A DNA stretch of 64,000 nt from an uncultured Pseudomonadales bacterium (GCA_964406075.1 CAYOQI010000003.1:76718-140717), one strand, 5' to 3'; positions 20,633-47,359 are shown, counted from the stretch's first letter. Notes: generated by a model not told the origin, from the sequence alone. Made by a program: numbers and translations.

Positions 20633-21385
20633 TTACTTTTTCAACTCATACATAATAATTCCAAAACTGACGCTGGCGTTTAAAGATTCTGCTTTTCCAA
20701 ACCCAGGTATGCTCATTACTGAGTCTGCAAGTTGATCTACTTCAGGAGACGTCCCGATGGATTCATTGCCAATCACAAGCGCAAGTTGGTTGGTTGCCTG
20801 GTTGGATGGTTGACTAGTTTGAGTTTCAGGGCGGGTGACTATCAACTTAACACCTTTCGACTTCAACATATTTAAATCTTCAAGTAAATTGTCTGAGACA
20901 TACAGCGGAAGATGAAAAATCGAACCCATCGTCGATCTGAGGACTTTATCGTTGTACGGATCGGCGCCGTTGACAGTAGTCATCACAGCATCGGCTCCAA
21001 ACCAATCAGCGGTCCGAATCATGGTACCAAGATTTCCAGGATCTTTGATATCTTCAAAAACGACAATCATTTTTTTATCAAAAAGACTTTCCAGTTGAGG
21101 ATCATTTTTTCTGACCACTGCAAAAATACCGGCAGGAGTTTTAGATGAAGTTAAGCGTTCTGCATTTGAATCAGAAATAATTGATAACGGTATGTTCGAA
21201 ATTGATAATTGTGAAAGGTAAATGCGTTCATTTCGATCAAACGTCTCAGTGAAAATGATTTGAACAATCGCTTGTTTTGATGAAAGAGCCTCTTCAACAA
21301 TTTTTTTTCCTTCAATCAAAAAAACACCTTCTTTGTTTCTGAAAGATCGTTTTTGGAGTTTGGAGAGTTCTTTGACTGAGTACAT
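20633..21385 (-). CDS. SpoU/TrmH-family RNA 2'-O-methyltransferase
   Basis: DPGNLGTMIRTADWFG, GNESIGTS and ESLNASVS motifs. Confidence 0.8.
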   Translation of the reverse strand: MYSVKELSKLQKRSFRNKEGVFLIEGKKIVEEALSSKQAIVQIIFTETFDRNERIYLSQLSISNIPLSIISDSNAERLTSSKTPAGIFAVVRKNDPQLESLFDKKMIVVFEDIKDPGNLGTMIRTADWFGADAVMTTVNGADPYNDKVLRSTMGSIFHLPLYVSDNLLEDLNMLKSKGVKLIVTRPETQTSQPSNQATNQLALVIGNESIGTSPEVDQLADSVMSIPGFGKAESLNASVSFGIIMYELKK

Positions 21386-21396
21386 GAGTTGATTGG

Positions 21397-22638
21397 TTAA
21401 GAAACTGATTGGATGAATTCAGCCACAGATACTTGTTTTTGGTCTCGAGTTTGAATATTTTTGACAGTGATTAGGTTTTTCTGAATCTCTTCTTCACCAG
21501 CAATCACCGCATATTGAATACCTTTTTTCTCAGCGTTTTGCAGTTGTTTGCCGATGGTTTCATTCATATCCGGATAGACTTCGGTGCGAATATCAGCTTG
21601 TCTGAGTTGTTTAGCAATTACTAGAGAGTTGGGAAGTGTCTGGTCATTAAAAACTGTCACCAGAACTTGAGTTCCAGTATTCTCAATTTTAATTAAATCT
21701 AGTTGATCGGCGGCTTCGACTGTTCGATCAAAACCAAGTCCAAAACCAACTGCTGGTATAGAAACACCAGAGAGTTGTTCAATCAATTTGTCATATCTTC
21801 CACCACCACCAACAGAACCAACTGTGTATTCAGGAATTCTGCCTTCAAAAATTAGTCCAGTGTAGTAATCGAGTCCACGGGCAATTTTGGGATTAAAAAC
21901 CAGTGCTTCTTTCTTGACTCCCAAACTTACGGCTTGATCAATAATCTGACGAAGGTTATCTGACATTTCCGCAGTTTCAATTGCGGTGATCGTGTTATCA
22001 GCATTTTCTTCGGAAATACCTTTATTCATTAATTCTTTGGCAACATCTTCGGGACTCATTTTATCGAGCTTATCAATTGACTGAATGATCGAAAACACAT
22101 CACAACTATCGTTCGCGAATTCGGACAGAGTTTGTATCAATGTCTGTCGATCGTTCACTTCAATTTTGATCGAAGTTAATCCAATTTCTTGATAAATGAA
22201 GTAATAGACGGCTAAGATTTCAGCATCTGCAATTGAAGAATTTGAAAAAATATCGGCATCACATTGAGCGAATTCTCTAAATCTCCCTTTTTGAGGCTTA
22301 TCCGCTCGAAAAACATTCTGCATTTGATAGCGACGAAAATACTTTGGCAGTTCATTTTGATATTGAGCCAACACTCGAGCAGTCGGAACAGTTTGATCAT
22401 AGCGTAAGGCTACTTCACGCTCACCACGATCTTGAAATGAATAGACCAATTTGTCTGCCTCATCACCATATTTTCCGAGGAGGAGGGAAGCGTACTCAAG
22501 AGTGGGCGTTTCAAGCGGTGCAAAACCAAACCGTTCGAAAACAGTTTTGATTTTTCCTGCCACGACATCACGCTTCCGTTTTTCTTCTGGAAGGAAATCT
22601 CGAAAGCCTTTTAGTGTTTGTAGCTGATCATTTTTCAT
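21397..22638 (-). CDS. hisS: histidine--tRNA ligase
   Basis: LKGFRDFLPEE, FRADKPQKGRFREFAQCD and GGGRYD motifs. The start at 22638 (MKNDQLQTLKGFRD) is preferred, with in-frame ATGs further upstream to 22695. Confidence 0.85.
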   Translation of the reverse strand: MKNDQLQTLKGFRDFLPEEKRKRDVVAGKIKTVFERFGFAPLETPTLEYASLLLGKYGDEADKLVYSFQDRGEREVALRYDQTVPTARVLAQYQNELPKYFRRYQMQNVFRADKPQKGRFREFAQCDADIFSNSSIADAEILAVYYFIYQEIGLTSIKIEVNDRQTLIQTLSEFANDSCDVFSIIQSIDKLDKMSPEDVAKELMNKGISEENADNTITAIETAEMSDNLRQIIDQAVSLGVKKEALVFNPKIARGLDYYTGLIFEGRIPEYTVGSVGGGGRYDKLIEQLSGVSIPAVGFGLGFDRTVEAADQLDLIKIENTGTQVLVTVFNDQTLPNSLVIAKQLRQADIRTEVYPDMNETIGKQLQNAEKKGIQYAVIAGEEEIQKNLITVKNIQTRDQKQVSVAEFIQSVS

Positions 22639-22717
22639 AGTGTTCTTTCTGGTAGATTGTACCATTTTATTCATGTATCGAACTGATATAGTCATTTTTT
22701 TTAACTAAAAAATGCAT

Positions 22718-22741
22718 AAAAAAAGCTCCGGTTGGGAGCTT
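22718..22741 (-). terminator. intrinsic terminator (attenuator) between the His-rich mini-ORF and hisS
   Basis: On the minus strand: AAGCTCC-caacc-GGAGCTT followed by a T run. Confidence 0.65.
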
Positions 22742-22766
22742 GGTCAATGTTGGTCTATAAAGAAAA

Positions 22767-22841
22767 TTATGCCATCAAAAAACCAGCACCCGAAATATGA
22801 GAGTGGTGATGATGAGCTGAAGAAATGACTTTAAATAACAT
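22767..22841 (-). CDS. His-rich leader peptide candidate MLFKVISSAHHHHSHISGAGFLMA
   Basis: 24 codons with CAT CAT CAC CAC TCT CAT. Lies between a consensus promoter and a terminator, upstream of hisS. Confidence 0.55.
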   Translation of the reverse strand: MLFKVISSAHHHHSHISGAGFLMA

Positions 22842-22849
22842 ACGACTTA

Positions 22850-22877
22850 ATTATATCCTATAGTGTTTGGTTGTCAA
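22850..22877 (-). promoter_or_regulatory. consensus sigma70 promoter (TTGACA-16 nt-TATAAT) overlapping the GNAT gene 3' end
   Basis: On the minus strand: TTGACA at 22877-22872 and TATAAT at 22855-22850. The mini-ORF ATG follows 8 nt after the -10 box. Confidence 0.55.
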
Positions 22878-23409
22878 TTAATTTGTAGTAAATGAGTTCG
22901 TCTTGATATTGATCCTGCCATTTTGTTGCTTTTGGTTTCTCACCACAAAGAATAAATCCCTGAGATTCATAGAGTTTTTTGGCTTCGATATTTGAGGACA
23001 GACAAGAGAGGTACAGCACTTCGAGTTCCGCTTCACTGGCTTGTTGAATAACTGAGAGCATCAGGGCTTTTCCAATTCCATTTTTTCTAAATTCTGGGTG
23101 AACTGACAAGTTAAAAACTTGTCCAGTATGGGCCATTTTTTTCTCAAAGTTCTGAGTTAACTGAATATATCCGACCATTTTTTCGTCAATAAAATATCCA
23201 AAATAGCCAAAATGCGGTGGATTGAAATTATCTAAGACTGTGTAGCGAAAAAAATGTTCAGGTTGATCAACTTCAAATTCATATGAAGACAAGAACGAAT
23301 TGGGGTTTGACTGGAGAACTATCAAACGAAGTTCCCTGTACGCTTGAGCATCGTTTTGAGTTAAAAGACGAATTGAAGGTTTTTGTTGAGTAGCTGCCAT
23401 ATGTAACAC
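22858..23409 (-). CDS. GNAT-family N-acetyltransferase
   Basis: Acetyl-CoA motif HPEFRKNGIGKALM. Confidence 0.75.
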   Translation of the reverse strand: MLHMAATQQKPSIRLLTQNDAQAYRELRLIVLQSNPNSFLSSYEFEVDQPEHFFRYTVLDNFNPPHFGYFGYFIDEKMVGYIQLTQNFEKKMAHTGQVFNLSVHPEFRKNGIGKALMLSVIQQASEAELEVLYLSCLSSNIEAKKLYESQGFILCGEKPKATKWQDQYQDELIYYKLIDNQTL

Positions 23410-23427
23410 TGAATATCTTTTCTAAAA

Positions 23428-23483
23428 TTCACCCCTTTCCCGGCACGTTCGTGTCGGGTTTTCCCCTCAAAAGAAGGGAAAAT
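23428..23483 (+). repeat. structured intergenic element, copy A (TTCACCCCTTTC - variable hairpin - TTTCCCCTC..GGGAAAAT)
   Basis: Shares both conserved flanks with the copy at 28956. The internal hairpin CCCGGCAC/GTGTCGGG differs in sequence from that copy but keeps its pairing. Confidence 0.5.
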
Positions 23484-23484
23484 A

Positions 23485-24549
23485 TCATATGAGTTCTTCA
23501 CAACCTTTTGATGAAAATAAAACGGAGTTTTCAAAACGGTAGCCAAACTGCCCTGGTAAATAAATCCCTGGCTCAATAGTGATCACACAATGATCTGGTA
23601 AAAGCTGATCATTTTTCCAATTGAGTGATGGTGGTTCATGAACGACGATGCCGACTCCATGACCAGTAGTATGGATGAACTGTAAACCATATCCTGCTTT
23701 AGTTATAACTGATCGGGCAACCTGATCGATATCTTTCGCTTGTAATTGTTTATCCGAATTACAAGTCTTCAAAGCAGTCGAATATGCATGCTTAACGATT
23801 CGTTCCACTTTTGTAAATTGTTGTGATGGTGTATCCCCAAACCAAAATGTTCGAGTCACATCCGCACAATAACCTTGCCATTTGGCGCCAATATCGATAA
23901 GTATAACTTCATTCTCTTTTAATTTTCGATCTGTAGGTTGGTGATGTGGCAGGGCAGAATTGTCAGAAAATGCGACGATAGTTGGAAAAGCCATAGTTTC
24001 TACGCCTTGATCAGATAAATACACTTCGAGCAGTTTTTTCACTGCTTTCTCTGACATACCAACTTTTATTTTCTTCTTCATTTCTAAAATAGCTTCATGA
24101 GTGAGACTGTTTGCTTTTCTGATTAACAGTATTTCACTTTCATCTTTTATCATTCGAAGCTCATCCAGCGGATCAACTTTTATCATTTCAAATGAAAGTT
24201 GAGACAGTTTGGTTTTTATTGTTTCAAATTCTTGAACGAATAAAGTATTCCCATCAAATTGAATACTGTTGATCTGATTTTTTTTACTCCATTCACCAAT
24301 CAGCTCAGTGAAGGGTGCTTGGCTACTCATATGATGGACGGGAATGTTGATGTTCGTGGGCAATGGTGAAAAAGGTGTTAAAAAACAGACAATTGCTGAG
24401 TCTGAAACAAGCAAAAAGCCTTCTCGTTCTTCAGGAGTAAGTTGTTGAATGCCTGTCAAATAAAAGAGGTGGGCAGAATCAGAGATGAGTAGAGCAGTTT
24501 TTGGCGGAACTTTTTTTTGAAGAAGAGATATTCGTGTTTGATAGTTCAT
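23485..24549 (-). CDS. M24-family Xaa-Pro aminopeptidase
   Basis: DIGAKWQGYCADVTRT, HGVGIVVHEPP and ITIEPGIY metal-ligand motifs. Confidence 0.8.
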   Translation of the reverse strand: MNYQTRISLLQKKVPPKTALLISDSAHLFYLTGIQQLTPEEREGFLLVSDSAIVCFLTPFSPLPTNINIPVHHMSSQAPFTELIGEWSKKNQINSIQFDGNTLFVQEFETIKTKLSQLSFEMIKVDPLDELRMIKDESEILLIRKANSLTHEAILEMKKKIKVGMSEKAVKKLLEVYLSDQGVETMAFPTIVAFSDNSALPHHQPTDRKLKENEVILIDIGAKWQGYCADVTRTFWFGDTPSQQFTKVERIVKHAYSTALKTCNSDKQLQAKDIDQVARSVITKAGYGLQFIHTTGHGVGIVVHEPPSLNWKNDQLLPDHCVITIEPGIYLPGQFGYRFENSVLFSSKGCEELI

Positions 24550-45115: not shown

Positions 45116-47359
45116 TTACATTACTCTGAGACGAGCATAGAAGCTACTCATCAAAAACCAGACAGCATGATTCGGATGAGTCATACAGTGTTTGATATTT
45201 TCTGAACAATCAGGGGCGAAGTAAACCGTTTCCTCTTTTTCAATCTGATCTCCCGCTTTCACTTTTACCTGATACTTCCCTACTCTGTTTTCAATTACAT
45301 CCATAAAAATTACGCCGTTTCCCTGTTGGTCTTGAATCGTTGTATCGAGAACTTCTGGTTCAGTTGAAATTTCCGGGATTACTTCTTGAGTTGTTGCATA
45401 GCCTTGCTCATCTTTCGGAATCAAGACAAATCGTACCGGGTTTCTGCCAGCAATGGCATATTTGTTGTGGGCATACAGCACTGTTTGTTCGTTGCTGAGA
45501 GGACGATCAATCACCTCAGGGAAAAGGTAAGGATAAAAAGTAGTACGTGCTGTCTCAATACTATTGATTGGTAGTGTTGTTAGAAATTTGCATGTATAAG
45601 GTTTCCCCTCACAGTCAATATCATATCGAAAGAAAAAAGGTTCTTTTTCCCAAAAAATCATATCAACTGATCGATTGTTATTTACTTTAACGGTGTTTAG
45701 TTCAAAGAATGGTAATGAGTCATGTAAAACGTTGAGACGAATTTCTGAGGGTGTCTGTACTTCAAAATAATCTGGGAAAAAAGTGAAAGTAATGGGCTGT
45801 TGCTGGGCATCAAGATAACTCAATTTTGCTGTATCACTCGCTACTCTTTCCAACTTTACGTTTTCATTTGATTTTATATCGGGTAAATCTATTGATGTAG
45901 GAATTGTAGCAGTATCGTTTTTTGTTTCTAATGTTTCCGGAGGACGATACTTATATTCTGGCAGAAGTATTTCTTTTACATTATCTTTGAGTTTGTGTTG
46001 CCAAGGCAAGTTTACCGGCTCACTAGTTTCATAAAAACGTGAACCAGCAACTACAAATGGTGCTACCCAGTAGCCAAGATTTTGAGCAGAATATGATGTG
46101 TACGGATCAGTCCAATTTTCATCATATATCCTCAGGTCAGTAATTTTTATTTCTGCATCTTTTTTCAAAATTCGAACTCGATATTTTGAAGCATTCACCC
46201 AAATAGCTTCAGTATCTGACTGATTGATCAAATCTTTCCCTTGGACGACTGTAATTGGTTGATTTAATTGAGAAAATTCTTCTTGAAAAGAAGACACAGT
46301 AGTAGTTAATAGTGTCGGTTTTTCTTCTTGGAGTTGTTTTACATACTCAATTTGTTTTACGAATTCGTCTTGATATTTTTCCTCCATGGAATTTTCTAAT
46401 CCTAAAATAGCGAAGCTGTAGGGATTACTCGACTGGCTGAGTGATTGGTTCAGTACGTTTTTAAAATACTCGAAGTTTTTTCCATCACGAGAGTAATCAT
46501 TCGGCTGTGAAGTAAAAGCACTGGTGCTATCACCATAATTAAAAAGAGGATCGGAAATAGTTTGACGTAACATTAAGGTTGATTTGTTCATTGGTTCATT
46601 AGTTGCTAGGTTTATTCCCTCACTGCCTGGAGTACCAGGCTTCTCTCCCAAAGGGAGAGAAGATTCTATAAGGTTAGTTTGTCTGGGAAGGAATGCCCAG
46701 TTTGGATTTGTGTAGTACGGATAATGGATTGGTCCACCATCGAGTGTGTAGCTATCTGTTCCCCACTGTTCTCTAGTGATCTCATGAGTGGTAACTCCGT
46801 ATTTTTCTCGCATGTAATTAATGGTTGGAGTGTCAACAATCCAGCCGACCGTAAACTTGGGATACTTTCCAAATTGCTTAAAAAATTCAGCAAAAACTGT
46901 ATCCACTAGTTTCTCTCTCATTTCTGGTTCGTAACCGATGGGATAGGCATATTGAGCTTGATACCAATTTTCATTTGTTCCTTTGTACTCTCCTCCACTC
47001 TTTTCTATTAAACTTGGAGTGATTTCGAGAAAAATTCCGAGTTCGTTAGCGGGTTGATTGGTTGATTGGTTGTTTGGTTGGCTAGTTGAATATTGTTTTA
47101 ACAGTTGAACGTATCTTGGATCGGTTAAGGCGTCATATCGAATGGCGAAATTAGCCGGCAGATCATTTTTTTCAAAAGTATCGAGTTGTAATTTTAAATG
47201 TTCAAGATTACCTGGATCACAACACTCCCCGCCTCTGACTTGGTTGATAAATAAAACTCGTTGAGACTGGTCCGATTGTGCGTTGACTCGAAGTGCAGAA
47301 AGAAAGAAGATAAACGTGAAGAGAAAAATGGTAAGTTGATATTTCAGAGATGTTGACAT
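45116..47359 (-). CDS. 747-aa secreted hypothetical protein
   Basis: Signal-like MSTSLKYQLTIFLFTFIFFLSALRVNAQ. No confident domain. Confidence 0.5.
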   Translation of the reverse strand: MSTSLKYQLTIFLFTFIFFLSALRVNAQSDQSQRVLFINQVRGGECCDPGNLEHLKLQLDTFEKNDLPANFAIRYDALTDPRYVQLLKQYSTSQPNNQSTNQPANELGIFLEITPSLIEKSGGEYKGTNENWYQAQYAYPIGYEPEMREKLVDTVFAEFFKQFGKYPKFTVGWIVDTPTINYMREKYGVTTHEITREQWGTDSYTLDGGPIHYPYYTNPNWAFLPRQTNLIESSLPLGEKPGTPGSEGINLATNEPMNKSTLMLRQTISDPLFNYGDSTSAFTSQPNDYSRDGKNFEYFKNVLNQSLSQSSNPYSFAILGLENSMEEKYQDEFVKQIEYVKQLQEEKPTLLTTTVSSFQEEFSQLNQPITVVQGKDLINQSDTEAIWVNASKYRVRILKKDAEIKITDLRIYDENWTDPYTSYSAQNLGYWVAPFVVAGSRFYETSEPVNLPWQHKLKDNVKEILLPEYKYRPPETLETKNDTATIPTSIDLPDIKSNENVKLERVASDTAKLSYLDAQQQPITFTFFPDYFEVQTPSEIRLNVLHDSLPFFELNTVKVNNNRSVDMIFWEKEPFFFRYDIDCEGKPYTCKFLTTLPINSIETARTTFYPYLFPEVIDRPLSNEQTVLYAHNKYAIAGRNPVRFVLIPKDEQGYATTQEVIPEISTEPEVLDTTIQDQQGNGVIFMDVIENRVGKYQVKVKAGDQIEKEETVYFAPDCSENIKHCMTHPNHAVWFLMSSFYARLRVM

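Follow-up and report, generated by a model that had tools for sequence, protein, structure and literature searches.

A putative histidine-codon leader-peptide attenuator in front of hisS in a Patescibacteria-type genome

What does a run of histidine codons do between a promoter and a terminator, directly in front of the gene for histidyl-tRNA synthetase (HisRS)? The question is raised by a 64,000-nucleotide (nt) stretch of DNA deposited as an uncultured Pseudomonadales bacterium (GCA_964406075.1 CAYOQI010000003.1:76718-140717; hereafter, the window). On its minus strand, between positions 22877 and 22718, it carries a promoter, a short open reading frame (ORF) rich in His codons, and an intrinsic terminator, followed by hisS. 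Very probably, transcription into hisS is governed here by a ribosome-mediated (leader-peptide) attenuator, with charged tRNA-His as its signal. An original prediction, made from this DNA alone, had proposed that hisS is under a translation-mediated His attenuator whose transcript appears to be leaderless. That proposal is now backed by the architecture common to 41 leaders, the co-variation and conserved spacing of their pairing segments, the −10 boxes next to their start codons, and their linkage to histidine genes, as well as by the energetics of the alternative folds.

Elements and alternative folds of the window leader

Promoter P1 (22877-22850) is composed of a −35 box, TTGACA (22877-22872), a 16-nt spacer, and a −10 box, TATAAT (22855-22850). 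It is a 12/12 consensus match, the sole one between 20000 and 26000, and overlaps the stop codon and 3′ end of a GNAT ORF (23409-22858). The leader ATG at 22841, which lies 8 nt past the −10 box and lacks a Shine-Dalgarno sequence, opens the ORF MLFKVISSAHHHHSHISGAGFLMA (22841-22767; 24 codons plus stop). Five His codons fall within six positions of this ORF (22814-22797): CAT CAT CAC CAC at 22814-22803 (codons 10-13) and CAT at 22799-22797 (codon 15). The intrinsic terminator AAGCUCC-caacc-GGAGCUU (22741-22718) begins 25 nt past the leader stop codon and consists of a hairpin with a 7-bp GC-rich stem (22741-22723) and a run of seven U (22724-22718), giving a leader of ~125 nt. Promoter, ATG, His-rich ORF, terminator, and hisS thus follow one another on the minus strand as, position for position, the original prediction had it.

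The leader RNA can adopt two mutually exclusive arrangements. Segment 1 (22817-22799), which holds the His codons, is the 5′ strand of an anti-antiterminator whose partner is segment 2, GGGUGCUGGUUUUUUGAUGGC (22791-22772). The core of segment 2 (22791-22781) can pair either with segment 1 or with segment 3, GACCAAGCUCCC (22745-22734), which includes the terminator 5′ arm; the 2:3 pairing is the antiterminator, while 3:4 is the terminator hairpin. The full leader folds into the 1:2 hairpin plus the terminator, with a total of −24.4 kcal/mol. The 1:2 hairpin (22817-22799 with 22791-22772) contributes −13.3 kcal/mol (z = −2.8) and the terminator hairpin −9.1 to −10.1 kcal/mol (z = −4.2 for the −10.1 fold). 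The antiterminator that the original prediction had drawn between codons 17-20 and the terminator arm proves real: the GGGUGCUGG/CCAAGCUCCC duplex has an RNAduplex energy of −14.3 kcal/mol, matched by 0.3% of shuffles, and the 2:3 duplex of the window scores between −14.3 and −14.7 kcal/mol, with the terminator hairpin at −9.1.

The folding check recommended with that prediction yields both states of a switch. When the RNA 5′ of 22793 is removed, mimicking a ribosome stalled on codons 10-13, segment 1 is no longer available and the minimum free energy fold changes from 1:2 plus terminator to segment 2 (GGGUGCUGGUU) paired with GACCAAGCUCCC, at −18.7 kcal/mol, with the terminator unformed. The antiterminator of the window is therefore mutually exclusive with the terminator and more stable (−14.3 to −18.7 versus −9.1 to −10.1 kcal/mol). 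The 1:2 pairing was missed by the original prediction; together with 2:3 and 3:4 it makes up what is, in the modeled folds, a full trp/his-type attenuator switch.

In the proposed mechanism, the transcription start site, leader translation, ribosome stalling, and His-dependent read-through are all predicted steps. The P1 transcript would start at, or a few nt from, the leader ATG, and its 5′ end, with no Shine-Dalgarno sequence, would be where a ribosome loads. With ample His-tRNA, the ribosome would pass the His codons and segment 2, which would be occupied or re-paired with segment 1. With segment 2 unavailable, segments 3:4 would form the terminator and transcription would end at the U run 22724-22718. 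If His-tRNA runs short, the ribosome would stall on codons 10-13 and cover segment 1, leaving segment 2, ~12-14 nt downstream, just outside its footprint; 2:3 would then form, the terminator would be blocked, and the polymerase would enter hisS. Without any translation, both 1:2 and 3:4 would form, leading to termination.

No other leader with an amino-acid run followed by a terminator was found in the 64-kb window. Two further His-run short ORFs near hairpins were dismissed, both being inside long ORFs.

A leader family linked to histidine genes

The closest HisS sequences come from metagenome-assembled genomes, mostly titled Patescibacteria, Pacebacteria, Woesebacteria, and Roizmanbacteria, although some titles look mislabelled. 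Among 80 GTDB species representatives, no HisS exceeds 69% identity to that of the window; enough upstream DNA is available for 75 loci. A metagenome scan added 18 loci, none above 74% identity, and closer relatives were obtained by a protein search and then contigs, with three Logan contigs reaching 84%, 75%, and 72%. A short ORF with at least three His in five residues, located no more than 400 nt upstream of hisS, occurs on the hisS strand in 22/75 loci. The opposite strand has one in 1/75 loci, and control windows (n = 2,286) have one in 2.1% of cases (binomial P ~3e-19). No amino acid other than His has such a strand bias upstream of hisS. Relaxed criteria and a search further upstream bring the total to 41 leaders, 34 of them within the 80 species representatives. 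The conserved His-run mini-ORF and terminator that the original prediction said should be sought before hisS in related genomes are hence present at 40 loci besides the window. Judged by sequence comparison, this conservation excludes a chance origin of the element.

The leader ORFs of the family have 15-25 codons, including 2-6 His codons. The His run begins at codon 10-14 in 30 of the 31 measured leaders and at codon 6 in the remaining one (L071). Both synonymous His codons are used across the family (CAT 91, CAC 53). The N-terminal residues vary, and the peptide sequence is unconserved outside the His run. A terminator (GC-rich hairpin plus U run) follows 20-104 nt past the stop codon in 41/41 leaders, and the 1:2 hairpin is seen in most family folds. 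Segment 2 is, across the family, a copy of the terminator 3′ arm, and its position is constrained relative to the ORF. It starts at a median of 12 nt (range 7-19) past the third His codon and ends at a median of 11 nt past the first base of the stop codon. A ribosome protects ~10-13 nt 3′ of its A site. Thus, segment 2 starts just past the stretch covered by a ribosome at the His codons, so that the spacing fits ribosome size, and its end is placed such that a terminating ribosome would cover it. In the window, L005, L033, L034, and L071, the leader ORF instead extends across segment 2.

A −10 box (at least 5/6 match to TATAAT) ends 4-14 nt before the leader start in 35 of the 40 leaders for which upstream DNA is available, and in 31 of these 35 the distance is 6-10 nt. 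Random ATGs have such a box in 5.9% of cases (P ~4e-38 versus leaders). Among the 35 boxes, 21 are TG-extended and 18 are accompanied by a good −35 box. Given this spacing, transcription would begin on the start codon or a few nt ahead of it, and the mRNA is predicted to be leaderless or nearly so.

Candidate leaderless genes are also seen beyond the leaders. In L028, L037, L041, L061, L062, L076, and L080, which lack the leader, TATAAT ends 6-8 nt before the hisS ATG (~3001); this arrangement suggests that hisS itself may be leaderless in those loci and that leaderless translation may be common in the clade. In the window, the ATGs of five long ORFs lie 5-10 nt past a TA(A/C/T)AAT box, at 47359 (−), 47430 (+), 38350 (+), 28462 (+), and 7061 (+). 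These candidate leaderless genes have 747, 1362, 275, 148, and 159 codons, respectively, and the first two form a divergent pair. A window-wide test for leaderless genes is not significant, with 5/24 sites against a 15% background.

The pairing segments change in concert. The terminator arms are diverse, falling into 22 classes (AGCUCC, ACUCCC, ACCCGC, GUCCCC, CCUCAC, and others), and segment 2 shifts along with them (GGGUGCUGG, GGGAGUUGAU, GUGUGGGUA, UUGGGG, GGUGUGAGUGGG, and others). The co-variation was measured by pairing each post-His zone with its own terminator 5′ arm and then with permuted partners. For 31 leaders, the mean 2:3 RNAduplex energy is −14.0 kcal/mol for cognate pairs and −10.2 ± 0.45 kcal/mol for permuted pairs, and 0/20,000 permutations reach the cognate value. 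With one representative for each of the 22 arm classes, the corresponding values are −14.36 and −10.56 ± 0.54 kcal/mol (0/50,000). When the zone itself is shuffled, the cognate pairing has a mean z of −2.9. Cognate 1:2 pairing is likewise better than permuted pairing, with only 2/20,000 permutations reaching it. The family mean energies are −14.0 kcal/mol for the antiterminator and −10.1 kcal/mol for the terminator, as an effective switch needs.

A tie to histidine that is independent of the leader itself is afforded by the genes found between leader and hisS in some relatives. L058 has the order leader, HisG-like, HisD (TIGR00069, 450 bits), hisS; L059 has leader, HisG (93 bits), HisC (281 bits), hisS; L100 has leader, a 101-residue ORF, HisC-like, hisS; and L102 and L085 have leader, short HisG-like, hisS. 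In L026, L038, L040, L054, L055, and L064, the intervening gene encodes a histidine-racemase-like protein. Its matches to CntK/HisR (NCBIfam) are weak (42-52 bits in the scanned L055 and L040) and far below the cut-offs. hisS lies 8-18 nt after this gene in L026, L040, L055, and L064, while in L038 and L054 the racemase-like protein and HisRS are joined in one continuous ORF of 643-645 amino acids (aa). In the window, and at no fewer than 28 further loci, nothing separates the leader from hisS. Read from gene order, the leader is a his-type operon leader with hisS as its constant last gene. The lineage was expected by the original prediction to be a His auxotroph; the 64 kb of the window contain no HisG-like or HisC-like gene, but the lineage as a whole is not uniformly free of his genes.

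The intervening genes have features of their own. The racemase-like protein has 230-260 aa and an ACGSGS motif (L055 2301-2993, L026 2195-2983, L040 968-1693, L064 2277-2993), and the ORFs joined to hisS lie at 2058-3989 in L038 and 1816-3753 in L054. The HisG-like ORFs directly before hisS are short or divergent (L085 948-1457, L102 1732-2428, L058 613-1629, L059 1155-1952), and the copy of L102 is split into two ORFs. Their adjacency to hisS makes one ask whether these organisms use HisRS in a second role, as a HisZ-like partner.

The wider neighborhood is conserved at close range. The order M24 peptidase, GNAT, leader, hisS, SpoU methylase, EamA, HD is common to the window and its three closest relatives, in which the leader follows straight after the GNAT gene and encodes the peptides MSFAQIRTSTSSYHHHLHILV, VLKRNLSLAVDHHHTHLLV, and MSQITLIATTLHHRHTHSMV. 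The GNAT acetyltransferase gene of the window (23409-22858, minus strand), outside the element, has RimI-like and GNAT family matches. In ~20 relatives, among them L001, L005, L014, L022, L024, L030, L036, L043, L049, L052, L060, L072, and L092, a tRNA gene lies on the opposite strand 70-250 nt upstream of the leader or of hisS, in the place that the GNAT gene occupies in the window's closest relatives. It was considered as a tRNA-His; this assignment was rejected, as the gene encodes tRNA-Ala(CGC).

Individual loci depart from the common plan. L039 (~2750-2900) keeps the promoter, a short ORF, VKNKLSNTSNHPLLQPISGDSF (GTG start), and the terminator before hisS with one His codon left; this leader may have decayed or been retargeted. 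Four relatives without a leader (L048, L065, L089, and L097) have a conserved hairpin ~60-150 nt upstream of hisS (~2870-2910 in L065), with a loop (A/T)(C/T)TGATCAC, a co-varying purine-rich stem, and no U run after it, for example GAGGGGGAGAAGAG-tctgatcac-CTCTTCCCTCCCTC. In L010 (2860-2960) and L011 (2830-2930), the ~90 nt between the attenuator terminator and hisS are conserved between both loci (GAnCGAnCGTCA ... GATAGnGAG ... AAGGCA ... TGCCG) with no Rfam match, and may constitute a second RNA element. L034 (2747-2968) and L033 (2733-2955) harbor a conserved ORF of ~73 aa (MNKESKELFLSDEERGITDRTTRMAND...) between the attenuator and the hisS P2, a promoter described below; the copy in L033 seems frameshifted.

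hisS, its second promoter, and competing explanations

The regulated gene, hisS (22638-21397, minus strand), encodes a histidine--tRNA ligase of 413 aa. It passes the NCBIfam hisS equivalog model (TIGR00442, 379 bits versus a cut-off of 286.75) and is the single hisS-like gene in the window. Homologues, mostly of 412-420 aa with an equivalent start, support the ATG at 22638. The longest ORF and the source annotation start the gene 19 codons upstream, at ATG 22695 (432 aa). However, this extension (22695-22639) is unconserved in the 84%-identical relative, and a start at 22695 would put a second promoter inside the gene. This candidate promoter, P2 (22664-22656), which the original prediction had overlooked, is an extended −10 motif read from the sequence, TGgTACAAT, situated downstream of the terminator and 17 nt before the hisS ATG. 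Of the 29 loci in which the leader abuts hisS, at least 18 have the motif at this place, versus 7.7% by chance; the count is a lower bound, as the automatic scan took a wrong hisS start in some loci, the window included. In relatives without the leader, a P2-type motif is the only promoter-like element before hisS. P2 probably supplies basal expression of hisS, to which the attenuated, stronger P1 would add inducible read-through when His-tRNA is scarce. Such a combination would make sense where the gene is essential.

Several observations weigh against an attenuator of hisS. In the window, as in most leader-abutting loci, the candidate P2 separates the terminator from hisS, and hisS expression would not be dependent on read-through. 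Five leaders have only two His codons. The whole-leader fold of the window beats shuffles only modestly (z = −1.5 to −1.9), and RNAalifold returns zero consensus pairs on a MAFFT alignment of 38 leaders. A column-by-column pair scan finds the C-rich and G-rich arms out of register in that alignment, which accounts for the absence of consensus pairs; because the column-based approach failed, the alignment-free comparison of cognate and non-cognate duplex energies was used. The stop codon of the window leader lies 12 nt beyond segment 2, such that a ribosome at the stop covers only the 3′ edge of the segment. The masking of segment 2 by a ribosome at the stop codon, as envisaged in the original prediction, thus fits most relatives, in which the stop is just before or inside segment 2, but not the window. 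Therefore, termination in the window is better explained by a ribosome traversing segment 2, with 1:2 re-forming behind it, than by one parked on segment 2. To our knowledge, transcription-translation coupling, on which the mechanism relies, is unstudied in Patescibacteria.

The promoter arrangement also invites the reading that the leader is a relic of his-type operon control. According to this explanation, the his genes were lost in the window, hisS is transcribed solely from P2, and the leader yields no more than a short terminated transcript, with no regulation that matters. Relatives do keep his genes between leader and hisS, the 64 kb of the window are devoid of his biosynthetic genes, and P2 is both present and conserved. 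Against a relic, however, stand at least 29 loci of diverged species in which the leader lies directly before hisS with every part intact. The window itself retains a perfect consensus P1 and an intact ORF, antiterminator, and terminator, and the 2:3 co-variation across 22 terminator-arm classes requires continued selection. Since nothing lies between terminator and hisS, read-through transcripts necessarily include hisS, and the relic explanation is unlikely. An independent small gene, encoding a functional His-rich micropeptide (e.g., metal-binding) or a small RNA that is adjacent to hisS incidentally, would account for a self-contained unit with its own strong promoter and terminator. Yet it would leave the 2:3 alternative pairing without a role and the linkage to hisS or his genes in 41 loci unexplained. 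Moreover, the conservation tracks the RNA pairing segments and their spacing and not the peptide outside the His run, which makes such a gene very improbable.

Direct sensing of uncharged tRNA-His by a T-box-like RNA, with the His codons as untranslated specifier triplets, merits consideration because T-boxes classically control hisS in Firmicutes (PMC2965389) and an antiterminator/terminator pair is present here. The leader of ~125 nt nevertheless has no Stem I or T-box sequence, and it has 2-6 tandem His codons instead of one specifier. These codons are always in frame with a promoter-adjacent start, and the distance from stop codon to segment 2 is conserved. Neither the T-box model (RF00230) nor His_leader (RF00514) has a match at E ≤ 10 in 21000-24000, or at gathering score in the whole window or in 20 leader-bearing loci; the Rfam scans of the window and these 20 loci return tRNAs only and no regulatory family. 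T-box-like sensing is accordingly an extremely remote prospect. Coincidence would require that the hairpin simply serve GNAT as its terminator and that a chance frame in the GNAT 3′ untranslated region account for the His-rich ORF. The GNAT gene indeed has no other terminator before hisS, and AT-rich DNA is rich in short ORFs. The leader follows hisS and not GNAT, however, as the ~20 relatives with a divergent tRNA-Ala upstream still carry it, and a consensus promoter immediately precedes the ATG. With the enrichment (P ~3e-19), these comparative data refute coincidence in practice, leaving it a vanishingly small chance. A leader-peptide attenuator acting on hisS is thus the preferred reading.

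Relation to known systems and significance

By sequence, the element is outside the Rfam His_leader and T-box families and represents a putative new family of a well-known mechanism. It is readily compared with hisL of Salmonella and E. coli. In both, tandem His codons are clustered in a short ORF, the hairpins that come after it (anti-antiterminator, antiterminator, and terminator) exclude one another, and a ribosome stalled at the His codons frees (here, is predicted to free) the antiterminator strand. However, there is no sequence or covariance-model similarity between the two. The present family has 2-6 His codons and a simple 1:2 / 2:3 / 3:4 scheme, whereas hisL has 7 His codons and six segments. 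In addition, its ORF appears leaderless, its host is a Patescibacteria-type genome, and its target is hisS instead of a biosynthetic operon.

In E. coli pheM-pheST, a leader peptide with codons for the cognate amino acid attenuates an aminoacyl-tRNA synthetase operon, such that low charging results in more synthetase. The logic is the same as that proposed here, with a cognate-codon leader controlling a synthetase gene. In contrast to the present family, pheM senses Phe, starts from a Shine-Dalgarno sequence, and is unrelated in sequence, and no internal basal promoter comparable to P2 is known to have been proposed for it.

A His leader with a premature terminator has been predicted by comparative genomics upstream of a Bacillus hisS paralogue (hisS*) and of hisZ (Naville & Gautheret 2010, PMC2965389). 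There, the genes under leader control are paralogues connected with histidine biosynthesis, and a T-box is retained at the canonical hisS (PMC2965389). The His-codon short ORF and terminator before a HisRS-family gene are shared with the window, in which the gene is instead the equivalog hisS, the only copy seen; the phylum and the leaderless start also differ. Classical attenuators have been predicted upstream of Streptomyces trpS and leuS, with no histidine case there (Seliverstov et al. 2005, PMC1262725). They resemble the present family as leader peptides before synthetase genes outside Proteobacteria, but concern other amino acids and another phylum. Leaderless regulatory poly-Cys short ORFs are described in mycobacteria (bioRxiv 10.1101/834739), in which cys leader peptides lack obvious terminators (PMC1262725). 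As in the window family, a short ORF at the 5′ end of the transcript uses a codon run for a single amino acid as a sensor of its supply; here, the amino acid is His and a canonical terminator/antiterminator pair is present.

The hisS T-box of Firmicutes (RF00230) has the same gene, the same tRNA-His charging signal, and the same antitermination output, yet it binds the tRNA directly without translation, and none of its features are found here. All individual features of the element have precedents, and the mechanism itself would not surprise a specialist.

Patescibacteria, or Candidate Phyla Radiation (CPR), are uncultured and genome-reduced and are thought to depend on hosts for amino acids. 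We know of almost nothing on gene regulation in these organisms, and our searches of the literature retrieved no account of Patescibacteria genes regulated by attenuation or by leader peptides. It is conceivable, though rather doubtful, that the element is the first amino-acid-sensing cis-regulatory switch described in CPR: a his-operon attenuator that survived genome reduction and whose only remaining task, in genomes without a visible his biosynthetic gene, is to match HisRS to the supply of histidine acquired from outside. In that tentative scenario, sensing would proceed via 70S loading on leaderless RNA and tight coupling of RNA polymerase and ribosome from the first nucleotides, and the variable his cargo would point to an unrecognised histidine salvage.

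The leader family, absent from Rfam, has several implications. With it, a bona fide hisS would join the short list of synthetase genes under leader-peptide control, which comprises pheST and the predicted cases of trpS, leuS, and the Bacillus hisS paralogue. The leader would also be a natural reporter of histidine status, which metatranscriptomes would reveal as the number of terminated relative to read-through transcripts. The his-related genes found alongside the leader hint at a partial histidine metabolism in presumed auxotrophs, and the spacing of the −10 boxes suggests leaderless translation in this lineage. If the response to His is as predicted, the conservation of such a sensor indicates that Patescibacteria use classical transcription-translation-coupled attenuation.

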